A stretch of DNA of 64,000 bases from Candidatus Aenigmatarchaeota archaeon (GTDB lineage Archaea; Aenigmatarchaeota; Aenigmatarchaeia; CG10238-14; SCSR01): contig JAVZHQ010000001.1 of assembly GCA_038998335.1 (NCBI GenBank), forward strand, positions 640,001-704,000. Reading direction: 5' to 3'. A program made the translations under genes and the position numbers. The notes under the pieces are model-generated. The model did not search any database. It saw nothing but the letters and a program-made list of their open reading frames with translations, and was not told the origin of the DNA. The stretch's first letter is position 1, and every line of letters begins with the position of its first letter. Of the stretch, positions 9,547 through 23,633 are shown one piece after another.

Positions 9547-10113
9547 CTAAGGTGTGACTCTTGATAAAGAATAATAAGTTACATCTCCTTCCTTATCTAC
9601 AACAGCCCACCACATAGTAGCTCTTATGTTGTGTGCAAGCCTAACTGCACGAGACATTTCTGGTAATGAAAAAGCAGCTTCCTCAGCAACTGCATGAACT
9701 ATTGCTTTTGTATGCTCATGAGGTGCTTTTGGTCCTCTCTTCAGTTTAACTCCTCTTTCATAAAGTCTAAAGTGAGCACCAAACTTGAAACCAGTTTTAA
9801 CAAGATAACCTCTATTCCTTAAGTCCCGATAAACTATAAATTGTGGATGAAATTGGTTAACATTTTTTGTTCCTATTTCTATTAATTCAGAAAGTTCGAT
9901 TTTTCTTTTTTTATCATTTTCTTTAACAAAAACTCTAATCTTTCCCTTTTCAAGTAAGTAAGCAGCCTCTACCAAATCCAACTCAAGTCTGTTTGGGTTT
10001 TCTTCTGGTAACGGTTTACCATAACCAGAATCATCGTAAAGAATTACTGCTTCAGGATCCCAAATTATTACTCTATTTTCTAATAGTTCACCTTCCCAAA
10101 CTTTTTCGCTCAT
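9547..10113 (-). CDS. endA: tRNA-splicing endonuclease subunit
   Basis: LVEAAYL, VYRDLRNRGY.VKTGFKFG..FRLY, H, AVVD.EGDVTYY. Confidence 0.92.
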   Translation of the reverse strand: MSEKVWEGELLENRVIIWDPEAVILYDDSGYGKPLPEENPNRLELDLVEAAYLLEKGKIRVFVKENDKKRKIELSELIEIGTKNVNQFHPQFIVYRDLRNRGYLVKTGFKFGAHFRLYERGVKLKRGPKAPHEHTKAIVHAVAEEAAFSLPEMSRAVRLAHNIRATMWWAVVDKEGDVTYYSLSRVTP

Positions 10114-10660: not shown

Positions 10661-10863
10661 AATTAAATAATGGTTAAAAGAATAAAAAGAATTAACTAGT
10701 TAAAATTTTTTAGTAGTTTTAAAACAATAAAAAATTATGCATTCAAAAATTGAAACTTGTTATGAAAAAATTTGTAAAATGGCAAGAGTTGCCTCAAGCG
10801 TTAATAGAGAATATGTATAAAAACTTATGGGACAGGAGGGATTTGAACCCTCGACACACCGGT

Positions 10864-10875
10864 AACCGCTTAGTT
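10864..10875 (-). other. 12-nt tRNA intron at canonical 37/38 position
   Basis: AACTAAGCGGTT inserted after G37; relaxed BHL-type pairing. Confidence 0.8.
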
Positions 10876-10904
10876 CTTCAGCCGGTTGCTCTCCCGGGCT
10901 GAGC

Positions 10905-10921
10905 TTACAGCACATTAGTGA
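10905..10921 (-). other. 17-nt BHB intron at tRNA position 9/10
   Basis: GGG[ACAG]TA^T-CAC-TAAT-GTG-[CTGT]AA^G-CTC is a strict BHB. Confidence 0.85.
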
Positions 10922-11711
10922 TACTGTCCCTACGACTGTCCCATTTCCTACATAATAAAATGGTTTCTAATTTATTTTGCTTGTTTAGATTTTGAAATCC
11001 TATCTCCTCTTTAAAATTAATTAATGAATTTAACCTTTTAATACGTAACCTTATTCCACAAGTTATTACCCCATCCTTTCGTACATTGAGTGTGTTTGAT
11101 ATAAATATTGTTGATTTTATATTAAAGAATTTTTCAAGACCTTCTTTAATCTCATTTAAGAATTGGAAACCATTATCAAGTAAATTTTGGGATTTCCACA
11201 TTTCCAAACCTATAAATGGGTTGTGTTTGCTGATGTCGACCGTGCCTTCACAATTGAAAACCATCCTAACAAAACTTCTGAAACACTCTTTTTCGTTTTT
11301 AATCCAAGTTGGTACAGAAAACTCTTGCATTACCTTACAACCTTTTGGAACCCCTACTAAATGAAGTACTCTACTCAACAATTTACAATTCACGCCAAAA
11401 TTGAAAGTTTTTCCAAATTTGTTTCCCTTACAAGGCCTCACTCTTCCTTTGATACCGAACAAATTAAAAATTTCATTTCCAAATATTTCTAACTCTTGGA
11501 GATCTTTTGAAGTAAAATCAAATCTCCATTTAGGTTCACCTTGGAGATGCCCATCACACATCAAGGCTGCAACTATAGATGCTAGTTGTGGAGAAGAACG
11601 AACAGGAAACCAATTGCTATGTAAATTAATTGAATTTATTGCATGATCTCTCGATTTGAATAACTTTATTACATCTTCTTCAGTTACTAAAATCTCACTC
11701 ATTTTTAACAC
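10905..11711 (-). CDS. Free-standing double-motif LAGLIDADG homing endonuclease
   Basis: Motifs LASIVAALMCDGHL and FVRMVFNCEGTV; no intein splice residues seen; ORF runs into the tRNA-Phe 5' exon. Confidence 0.85.
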   Translation of the reverse strand: MLKMSEILVTEEDVIKLFKSRDHAINSINLHSNWFPVRSSPQLASIVAALMCDGHLQGEPKWRFDFTSKDLQELEIFGNEIFNLFGIKGRVRPCKGNKFGKTFNFGVNCKLLSRVLHLVGVPKGCKVMQEFSVPTWIKNEKECFRSFVRMVFNCEGTVDISKHNPFIGLEMWKSQNLLDNGFQFLNEIKEGLEKFFNIKSTIFISNTLNVRKDGVITCGIRLRIKRLNSLINFKEEIGFQNLNKQNKLETILLCRKWDSRRDSITNVL

Positions 11712-11802
11712 AAAATAAATAAGAGATAGCCATTTATTTATCTTTCGAAAGTTTAGTTCCGGTAAGTTCTTCTTTTAAGAACTTAGAATCTCTACAAACT
11801 AT

Positions 11803-12483
11803 TTATTTCTTACCAAGCCTAAACTTTATTCCCTCTTTTATAATAAAAATTAATACCCCCAAAACAACTCTTACTCCTCTTATTATTCCACTTTTCTTCT
11901 TGTAAAGAACTTTTACAGGAACTTGTTTTATTTTAAGCCTATTTTTTAAGGCTTGAATAAACAAAGCATTTTCTATTATGTAGCCTCCATAAACAGCCTT
12001 GCTTAAAGTTTTAATTTTGTTTCCAGCTATAGCTATTAAACCACAATTTGTATCTTTAAAGCTAGTTCCAAAAAGTAGATTAAAAGAGTTCTTCCATACA
12101 AAATTTCCAAGTTTATGTCTAAAAGGAATTTTTTTAAAATCTCTATAGCCTGTAACAAACTCAGCTTCTTTTGCTTCTATCGGAGCTAAAAGTTTTAAGG
12201 CTTCTTCTGGGAAGTATTGTAAATCAGCATCAAGAAGAACAACGGCCTTGACATCTTTCCTTCTTTTCAGGAATTCAAAGCCTGTTTTTAAAGCTTCGCC
12301 TTTTCCTTTGTTTACTTCATGTTTTAACACTATGGCTCCAGCTTTTTTTGCTAGCTCGTAAGTTTTATCATGAGAGCAATCGTCGATAACTATTGGAACC
12401 ATATCAAGTTTTTTAACTCTTTTTACAACTTCATAAATCGTTTTTTCCTCGTTATAAGCTGGTATTAGACTAAAAACTTTCAT
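11803..12483 (-). CDS. Family 2 glycosyltransferase (DPM1-like)
   Basis: IPAYNEE, IDDCS.D, NKGKG.A, DADLQ, DTNCG. Confidence 0.92.
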   Translation of the reverse strand: MKVFSLIPAYNEEKTIYEVVKRVKKLDMVPIVIDDCSHDKTYELAKKAGAIVLKHEVNKGKGEALKTGFEFLKRRKDVKAVVLLDADLQYFPEEALKLLAPIEAKEAEFVTGYRDFKKIPFRHKLGNFVWKNSFNLLFGTSFKDTNCGLIAIAGNKIKTLSKAVYGGYIIENALFIQALKNRLKIKQVPVKVLYKKKSGIIRGVRVVLGVLIFIIKEGIKFRLGKK

Positions 12484-23523: not shown

Positions 23524-23633
23524 GGGGTTGTCAGCTAGTCTGGTTTAGGCTGGCAGGCTCCAGTTTATCTGGAGCTATGAAAAAAGATGAATGAAGAAAC
23601 CTGCTCACGTGGGTTCAAATCCCACCAACCCCA
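23524..23633 (+). tRNA. tRNA-Trp(CCA) with 35-nt intron at 37/38 (23564..23598)
   Basis: Acceptor GGGGTTG/CAACCCC, GCAGG-CTCCAG[intron]A-CCTGC, T arm GTGGG-TTCAAAT-CCCAC. Confidence 0.92.

Follow-up and report, generated by a model that had tools for sequence, protein, structure and literature searches.

A free-standing LAGLIDADG open reading frame (ORF) runs into the 5′ end of a tRNA-Phe gene that is itself interrupted, between tRNA positions 9 and 10, by a 17-nt bulge-helix-bulge (BHB) intron. Both lie on the minus strand of a 64,000-nt stretch from a Candidatus Aenigmatarchaeota archaeon, hereafter the window; the genome holding it is designated G000. By analogy with what has been termed "collaborative homing," we lean toward the interpretation, held with measured confidence, that the ORF encodes a free-standing homing endonuclease and that the neighboring mini-intron interrupts its target. 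Under this model, a LAGLIDADG homing endonuclease gene would be parked at the 5′ edge of the tRNA-Phe gene, and the 17-nt intron would be spliced by the host tRNA-splicing endonuclease, EndA. The enzyme would cut uninterrupted tRNA-Phe genes within the first ~10–20 bp, and the mini-intron, by splitting that target in the carrier genome, would render the carrier immune. Repair of a cut allele from the carrier would copy the intron and, with enough upstream homology, the ORF as well. The locus has the composition of a collaborative homing pair: a free-standing nuclease gene next to a gene whose intron contains no ORF. The interpretation is further supported by the LAGLIDADG fold and its catalytic residues, by an optional and decaying ORF at a fixed slot, by a link between ORF clade and tRNA identity, and by a second nuclease-like family that has converged on the same arrangement. 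From the sequence, we infer site-specific double-strand DNA cleavage by the ORF product with the intron-less allele as its target, the position of the cut, the immunity conferred by the intron, splicing in vivo, and a tRNA promoter in the 3′ end of the ORF.

The elements of the locus, from upstream to downstream, are as follows:

11702–10905, minus strand: free-standing LAGLIDADG ORF, 265 amino acids from the ATG at 11702
10960–10953, minus strand: TATA-like TTTTATTA, candidate tRNA promoter, within the 3′ end of the ORF and ~26 nt upstream of tRNA G1
10942–10935, minus strand: duplicate ("copy 1") of tRNA-Phe positions 1–8, GGGACAGT, 12 nt before G1 and inside the ORF tail
10930–10828, minus strand: tRNA-Phe(GAA) gene, with G1 at 10930 and discriminator A73 at 10828 (Rfam match and manual parse)
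10930–10922, minus strand: tRNA-Phe 5′ exon, tRNA positions 1–9, GGGACAGTA (read from sequence)
10921–10905, minus strand: intron 1 at 9/10, 17 nt, TCACTAATGTGCTGTAA (read from sequence)
from 10904, minus strand: start of exon 2, GCTC... (read from sequence)
10879–10877, minus strand: anticodon GAA (read from sequence)
10875–10864 (equally 10874–10863), minus strand: intron 2 at 37/38, 12 nt, AACTAAGCGGTT (sequence and manual parse)

The LAGLIDADG ORF and its stop codon

Assignment of the ORF to the LAGLIDADG proteins draws on Pfam, a protein alignment, an AlphaFold2 model, and Foldseek. The Pfam LAGLIDADG_3 match is barely above threshold (22.8 bits versus a cut-off of 22.5, E = 1e-4). An alignment of the ORF with nine tRNA-linked homologs (alignment A1) contains two LAGLIDADG motifs: D50-G51-H52 is invariant, and C151-E152-G153 has E in 9/10 sequences and D in the other. 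The catalytic acidic residues are retained in all ten. The AlphaFold2 model (predicted local distance difference test, pLDDT, 91.5; predicted template modeling score, pTM, 0.89) adopts a two-domain, pseudo-symmetric α/β fold, which Foldseek matches to PI-PfuI, the TliVMA intein endonuclease, I-Tsp061I, I-DmoI, and I-SceI (E 2e-10 to 1e-6); WhiA is also matched, as is the bI3 maturase, which ranks among the top hits along with PI-PfuI, I-Tsp061I, and I-DmoI. A PDB sequence search with the ORF retrieved VMA intein endonuclease domains only. Initiation at an alternative start, GTG at 11711, would extend the protein to 268 amino acids.

The ORF ends in ...RKWDSRRDSITNVL, and its TAA (10907–10905) comprises the final three bases of intron 1. 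The first-pass annotation had described a LAGLIDADG ORF that reads through the tRNA leader, exon 1, and the intron to a TAA at the 3′ splice site, and the sequence bears this out on every point. It had also concluded that intron and nuclease are physically one unit, which is not supported in that form. The last 12 residues (254–265), encoded by the duplicate, exon 1, and intron 1, are predicted to be disordered (pLDDT <50) and are unconserved, with tails that cannot be aligned among homologs. The G029 ortholog (55% identical) stops at nucleotides 6–8 of a 27-nt intron, the G028 stop is formed at the 5′ splice site, and other family members stop in the intron loop, in the D loop, or ahead of the tRNA. 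Because orthologs stop elsewhere and the tail is unconserved and predicted to be disordered, the coincidence of the TAA with the 3′ splice site is best read as incidental read-through, not design. Nor does the ORF lie inside the intron, as a classical intron-encoded homing endonuclease would: only its last 17 nt (10921–10905) are intronic, and ~770 nt are upstream of the tRNA gene. With intron and ORF separable among relatives, as described below, the link that is supported is a looser one, consisting of adjacency, presence/absence polymorphism, and recurrence at other tRNAs.

Two introns in the tRNA-Phe gene

The tRNA-Phe gene is 103 nt long with both introns and 74 nt after their removal, and CCA is not encoded. 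ARAGORN at default settings did not call the gene, and the Rfam tRNA match covers 10914–10828 only (30.9 bits versus a cut-off of 29). Parsed manually, the D arm is GCTC AGCCCGGGA GAGC; the anticodon arm is ACCGG CTGAAG, followed by intron 2 and then A CCGGT; the T arm is GAGGG/TTCAAAT/CCCTC; and the 3′ strand of the acceptor is CTGTCCC. Intron 2 is an insertion, present only in G000, G001, and G002, where the other relatives read ACCGG CTGAAGA CCGGT. Inspected by hand for a BHB, it forms only the relaxed version, with 3/4 central pairs. The TATA-like element upstream is possibly the promoter of this gene, as judged from its sequence.

Read by eye, the RNA spanning intron 1 is GGG ACAG UAU CAC UAAU GUG CUGU AAG CUC. 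It can be drawn as an hBHBh′ motif in which a 4-bp central helix, ACAG/CUGU, is formed by bases 4–7 of exon 1 pairing with the intron and is flanked by 3-nt bulges (UAU and AAG) on opposite strands. The outer helix (GGG/CUC) and inner helix (CAC/GUG) are 3 bp each in G000. A BHB is cut after the second base of each bulge, which here gives the 9/10 junction; a junction at 8/9 would yield an identical product. Removal of the 17 nt restores a 7-bp acceptor stem, U8 and A9, and the D stem GCUC/GAGC, a sequence that is uninterrupted in 16 relatives.

For the 33-nt stretch, the minimum free energy structure is an unbroken helix carrying a single bulge (z −0.4); for the whole tRNA-Phe precursor, it retains the acceptor and T arm and lacks the BHB. 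Given that free energy does not favor the BHB, covariation was used as evidence instead. Orthologous 9/10 inserts, 12 to 27 nt long, occur in 11 genomes including G000. The central helix is paired at 4/4 positions in all ten orthologous introns parsed by script, and in G041 by eye, with the versions ACAG/CUGU, GCAG/CUGU, GCGG/CCGU, and ACGG/CCGU represented among relatives. On an alignment of nine orthologous Phe introns (alignment A3, leaving out G041 and also G001, which is identical to G000), the BHB structure has 88 of 88 pair cells paired and three pairs changed on both sides, including the position 6 pair of the central helix, which changes from A-U to G-C. The inner helix h′ likewise covaries across the nine orthologs (CG, UA, UG, AU, GC), and in G035 and G046 a 5-nt loop replaces it, giving the relaxed BHB form. 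None of 500 shuffled controls matched the observed pairing or covariation score, and slid controls paired at 25–43%. This comparative evidence places the BHB fold of the 17-nt insert beyond chance.

The two introns proposed in the first-pass annotation, at 9/10 and 37/38, are thus both present, and its strict BHB with ACAG as the central helix is borne out by the complete pairing and compensatory changes. Its description of the 9/10 site as unusual stands in part. The site is not among the positions named in the excerpted text of PMC4090602, but introns in the first 10 nt recur in this lineage.

The same annotation had asked whether an intact tRNA-Phe exists elsewhere, and no other copy was found in the G000 assembly (1.0 Mb, 33% G+C, 90% complete) by Rfam, ARAGORN, two motif scans, or manual parsing, leaving the gene at 10930–10828 as the sole tRNA-Phe found; a second gene may lie in the missing part of the assembly. 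Rfam detected 45 tRNAs and intron-aware ARAGORN also 45, a partly different set; 48 candidates were parsed by hand. A genome scan for the GAA anticodon arm returned 626 raw matches, and inspection of those followed by a T-loop-like motif revealed tRNA context only at the window locus. A scan of the genome for the T arm plus acceptor returned 50 candidates, 48 of them known and two apparently spurious, and no additional tRNA-Phe. One "tRNA-Phe" reported by the ARAGORN intron search, at C2:91168, becomes a tRNA-Arg(GCG) when read with a canonical 37/38 intron.

The tRNA-Phe locus in related genomes

Searching with exon 2 located the tRNA-Phe gene of 26 relatives, for a total of 27 genomes read including G000. 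The gene order GT2–[ORF]–tRNA-Phe–(metzincin)–EndA is conserved across two families, and the ORF, where present at this locus, is always between GT2 and tRNA-Phe. The alleles fall into the following states:

ORF intact, 9/10 intron present: G000, G001, G029
ORF with stops, 9/10 intron present: G028 (1 TGA), G046 (5 stops)
9/10 intron without the ORF: G003 and G004 (same genus), G010, G035, G041
9/10 intron present, contig end before the ORF position: G002
51-amino-acid ORF remnant, tRNA-Phe without the intron: G016
Neither ORF nor 9/10 intron: 15 genomes

The ORF is therefore an optional gene that is present, decayed, or absent at one site. In this sample, full-length copies, intact or decayed, occur only beside intron-bearing Phe alleles, and no intact ORF was seen beside an intron-less tRNA-Phe in the 27 genomes read. 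As compared here, these states trace the pattern of invasion, decay, and loss that is expected of homing endonuclease genes.

A hot spring metagenome provides a further allele. In one contig (run X11), 10905 is connected to 11801, with the 895 nt between them replaced by 38 other letters. Read on the minus strand, these 38 letters follow GT2 directly and comprise an AT-rich spacer together with a tRNA-Phe 5′ end that no intron interrupts. The joint therefore represents an ORF-less, intron-less allele at the Phe slot in a relative. Two other joints (X2, 10931 to 12011, and X10, 10905 to 12031) were not used, the letters between their ends being unknown. In a global alignment of ORF-bearing versus ORF-less alleles, the AT-rich spacer was uninformative beyond ~25 nt upstream of the duplicate.

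A contig search with the single ORF protein returned two loci only, one 99% identical and the other (L134) with 48% ORF identity. At L134, the LAGLIDADG ortholog is followed ~60 nt on by a multi-intron tRNA-Phe, the 5′ end of which could not be reconstructed. A different arrangement is found at locus L071 of G005, which belongs to the same genus: its tRNA-Phe lacks the 9/10 intron and is interrupted near 30/31 by an intron of ~115 nt, which contains a long stem and part of an ORF similar to a LAGLIDADG C-terminus.

The conserved neighborhood also contains the presumed splicing enzyme, two genes downstream of tRNA-Phe:

9547–10113, minus strand: tRNA-splicing endonuclease EndA, 188 amino acids (Pfam PF01974 and PF02778)

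EndA has a single genomic match in G000, a genome full of noncanonical and multiple tRNA introns. Single-gene EndA in DPANN archaea is associated with disrupted tRNA genes in the excerpted text of PMC5829648, and the one EndA gene of G000 fits that pattern.

Recurrence of the ORF at other tRNA genes

Matches to the ORF are present in 33 of 61 related genomes. The 33 loci of free-standing size were all inspected, and rows with intein- or fusion-like frames of ~400 amino acids or more were set aside. Among the 33 loci, 19 abut or overlap the 5′ end of a same-strand tRNA, two lie in small-subunit (SSU) rRNA (L083, L084), and 12 are elsewhere, seven of the latter being longer forms beside the proteasome alpha gene. 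A BHB intron in the first 10 nt (at 2/3, 3/4, 8/9, or 9/10) was found in 12 of the 19 ORF-abutted tRNAs, and the full set is as follows:

ORF-linked tRNAs with a 5′ intron (12): five Phe at 9/10; Ile-GAT at 9/10; Arg-TCT at 8/9; three Pro and one Trp at 3/4; Ile-TAT at 2/3
ORF-abutted tRNAs without an intron in the first 10 nt (7): two Leu, Gln, Cys, two Glu (one cut by a contig end), and the Phe of G016

A tree of 15 ORFs resolves supported clades by tRNA, with values of 96/99 for Phe, 99/98 for Ile, and 100/99 for Pro plus Trp. The Trp-linked ORF is nested among the Pro-linked ORFs, and tRNA-Trp and tRNA-Pro both begin GGGGTTG. Within the larger clade that includes the ORF of the window, the tRNA next to the ORF has an intron among its first 10 nt for 10 of 11 members.

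A second, unrelated nuclease-like ORF at tRNA-Asn

A comparable arrangement occurs elsewhere in the window, built from different parts:

14676–13867, minus strand: ORF of 269 amino acids, helix-turn-helix (HTH) plus PD-(D/E)XK-like, overlapping tRNA-Asn and unrelated to the LAGLIDADG ORF
13934–13928, minus strand: upstream duplicate, GCCCTCG, of the first 7 nt of tRNA-Asn
13925–13839, minus strand: tRNA-Asn(GTT), with a 15-nt BHB intron at 8/9 (13917–13903)

The 269-amino-acid ORF extends across the duplicate, exon 1, and the intron and ends within tRNA-Asn. Its protein has an N-terminal HTH and a C-terminal predicted nuclease domain, although Pfam and NCBIfam give weak HTH matches only. The 81 homologs are unannotated proteins of DPANN archaea. 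In the C-terminal domain, E168, D181, and E190 are invariant. The AlphaFold2 model (pLDDT 88) weakly resembles PD-(D/E)XK-type nucleases, with Foldseek matches to the Bax1 nuclease, I-Bth0305I, AF1548, and T7 endonuclease I at E values of 1e-3 to 1e-2. Across the 61 genomes, clear matches are confined to G000, G001, and G023, and three further genomes give weak matches (E 3e-5 to 8e-4). The tRNA-Asn locus of G023 is built in the same way, with intron, duplicate, and overlapping HTH-nuclease-like ORF. Together, the ORF and the 8/9 intron are present in 3/3 of these genomes (G000, G001, G023), and neither is present in the 17 of 17 other relatives read. The only two G000 tRNAs with an 8/9 or 9/10 intron are those for Phe and Asn, the same two that are overlapped by nuclease-like ORFs.

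Duplicates of the tRNA 5′ end

Defined as at least 6/7 matches within 45 nt, an upstream duplicate accompanies both G000 tRNAs with an 8/9 or 9/10 intron (2/2) and none of the other tRNAs (0/46). It is also found at nine of the 12 ORF-linked tRNAs with a 5′ intron and at four Phe alleles that carry the intron without the ORF; it is missing from G029 and G046, which do have the ORF. The duplicate follows the acceptor sequence, being GGGACGG in G041. A role as an alternative or spare 5′ exon was ruled out, as positions 8–9 vary among relatives (TC, CA, GC, AC). The duplicate may be a footprint of insertion or repair, may mark the ancestral start site, or may act as a decoy for the 3′ acceptor strand.

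Alternative explanations

Several points weigh against collaborative homing. The interpretation rests on sequence comparison and predicted structures, and LAGLIDADG folds occur in maturases and WhiA too, as the Foldseek matches illustrate. Intron and ORF are separable: five ORF-less genomes retain the intron, and the G016 remnant lies beside an intron-less tRNA-Phe. Of the 19 ORFs that abut a tRNA, seven do so where the tRNA has no intron in its first 10 nt, and the intron is therefore not required for adjacency. Divergence between G000 and G029 is similar for the ORF (55%) and the neighboring GT2 (53%), such that long vertical descent accompanied by losses accounts for the Phe distribution no less well than horizontal homing. 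The X11 joint was made at 85% likeness with a 30-nt side and comes from a relative, not the same strain. Lastly, the homing model leaves the duplicate of the acceptor strand unexplained.

Some of these observations would suit a LAGLIDADG protein that has been domesticated and no longer moves, serving, for instance, either as a maturase-like helper in the folding or splicing of the 5′-intron precursor or as a DNA-binding protein that, like WhiA, regulates the tRNA promoter in its own 3′ end. Structural matches to the bI3 maturase and WhiA are in keeping with such roles, but retention of the catalytic acidic residues in 10/10 sequences is not. The same slot is occupied in two families, ORF divergence resembles that of the neighbors, and ORF subfamilies stay with one tRNA type. 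Against this constancy, G003 and G004, of the same genus, keep the intron without the ORF, and the G028 and G046 copies have decayed. Moreover, an unrelated nuclease-like family in the same arrangement fits selfish nucleases better than a dedicated helper. We consider domestication unlikely.

Another route to the locus would begin with a classical mobile intron. The ORF would once have resided inside a large BHB intron of tRNA-Phe, as I-DmoI does in a 23S rRNA intron, and an internal promoter and a new 5′ exon copy would have arisen near the 3′ end of that intron, leaving the layout seen today with its upstream duplicate. The ~115-nt tRNA-Phe intron of G005, with its LAGLIDADG C-terminal remnant, and the family members within SSU rRNA (L083, L084) show the kind of context that this history calls for. 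Its expected relic is nevertheless missing, as the 91 nt that separate the GT2 stop from the ORF start show neither a tRNA 5′ exon nor half of a BHB, and the 17-nt intron is already a complete BHB alone. The duplicates are equivocal: 5′ exon copies at 9/12 ORF-linked 5′-intron tRNAs fit a rearrangement, whereas G029 and G046 have the ORF without one. On balance, this history seems improbable. Least credible to us is that the two are unlinked neighbors, a selfish or decaying ORF that tends to land in AT-rich tRNA promoter regions and 5′ introns that are an independent lineage feature; many noncanonical introns of G000 are unrelated to any ORF, the Phe intron persists without the ORF in five genomes, and 7/19 abutting ORFs have no adjacent 5′ intron, but against this stand 5′ introns at 10/11 ORFs of the window ORF's clade, 8/9 or 9/10 introns in G000 at both nuclease-overlapped tRNAs and no others, and a tRNA-Asn ORF and intron that co-occur (3/3 both, 17/17 neither).

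Collaborative homing remains the reading we prefer, and a broader version of it can be put forward tentatively. DPANN archaea may harbor an unrecognized mobile cassette, consisting of a nuclease gene, a short tRNA 5′ duplicate, a replacement 5′ exon, and a BHB mini-intron, that would home into the first ~10 bp of tRNA genes and on which at least two unrelated nuclease families, LAGLIDADG and HTH plus PD-(D/E)XK-like, would have converged. Were this true, it would provide a DNA-level route for the gain and spread of protein-spliced tRNA introns, and mini-introns and duplicates might originate as spliceable scars of repair by which a tRNA gene becomes resistant to the nuclease.

Relation to known systems

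To our knowledge, BHB introns lack a ribozyme, and no mobility gene is known for those in tRNAs. How archaeal tRNAs gain BHB introns is an open question for which the present arrangement offers a concrete, testable mechanism. If correct, collaborative homing would extend from phage group I introns to cellular, protein-spliced introns, the abundance of disrupted tRNA genes in small-genome archaea might be explained, and the family would be a source of new LAGLIDADG enzymes with tRNA-gene targets.

The closest precedent is phage F-CphI and the psbA intron, the collaborative homing pair described in the excerpted text of PMC6083498. In both cases, a free-standing nuclease gene lies beside a gene with a small ORF-less intron at the expected cut site, the two being separate but adjacent. 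The phage system combines a self-splicing group I intron in a protein gene with an Endo VII family enzyme, and cleavage and protection have been shown. In contrast, the archaeal system has a BHB mini-intron, presumably protein-spliced, in a cellular tRNA gene and a LAGLIDADG ORF, a putative nuclease gene, that overlaps the tRNA 5′ end. With I-DmoI and I-Tsp061I, the ORF product shares a two-domain monomeric LAGLIDADG fold, one acidic residue per motif, an archaeal host, and a BHB intron in a stable-RNA gene. The ORFs of those enzymes are inside rRNA introns, whereas only the last 17 nt of the present ORF are intronic and the host gene is a tRNA.

Noncanonical archaeal tRNA introns (Sugahara 2008 and Fujishima 2010, as cited in PMC4090602) provide a second comparison. 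The excerpted text of that article gives 3/4 as the extreme case among noncanonical positions and states that some introns appear to move between tRNAs by a mechanism still unknown. BHB motifs outside 37/38, several introns per tRNA, and similar short introns across the tRNAs of one genome are common to those introns and to G000, but the same excerpt associates no nuclease gene with them. A third comparison is the tRNA-Thr of Caldiarchaeum subterraneum, disrupted by a recombinase-bearing element, for which the excerpt of PMC3293823 proposes a model of element-driven intron gain. There too, a copy of the tRNA 5′ part lies upstream of an intron-gaining tRNA with a mobile-element ORF nearby. The order reported in that excerpt is 5′ fragment, 1.8-kb element with a DNA recombinase, and tRNA; here it is ORF, 7–8-nt duplicate, and tRNA, with a LAGLIDADG nuclease and a duplicate only 12 nt from the gene. 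No description of a nuclease gene on an intron-split tRNA was found in the literature searched, which did not extend to subscription journals and supplementary files, and the wider pattern of ORFs on tRNA 5′ ends, many with 5′ introns, is new to us.

Additional observations

Short introns recur elsewhere in the tRNA complement of G000. Five tRNAs, namely Thr(GGT), Gly(GCC), Pro(CGG), and both Gln, have 12-nt introns of one family (AAnTTAGnGnAA-like) at 29/30, and intron 2 of tRNA-Phe (10864–10875) is similar to them in sequence:

C1:241491, C1:568138, C1:763881, C2:98148, and C1:556995: G000 tRNAs with 12-nt introns at 29/30

Judged by these similarities, the 12-nt family looks as though it has spread among the tRNAs of one genome. 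Longer introns of 35–36 nt, with C/D-box-like TGATGA elements, interrupt tRNA-Trp (window 23524–23633) and tRNA-Met(CAT) (C1:405024–405132); C/D-box elements are known in certain archaeal tRNA introns. G000 also has two tRNA-His(GTG) genes and, on a 9-kb contig, a third tRNA-Asn(GTT) (C5:8886–8958) with an unusual acceptor stem (TCCCCGT...). Some of these extra tRNA-Asn and tRNA-His genes may be foreign or element-borne.

Beyond tRNA genes, several genera have longer LAGLIDADG homologs (263–376 amino acids; L044, L045, L047, L048, L082, L093, and L094) that precede the proteasome alpha-subunit gene and are separated from it by a conserved spacer. Four of these (L044, L045, L047, and L048) have a conserved C-terminal extension, a putative winged helix. 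The proteasome-linked homologs form a separate branch of the family that may be domesticated.

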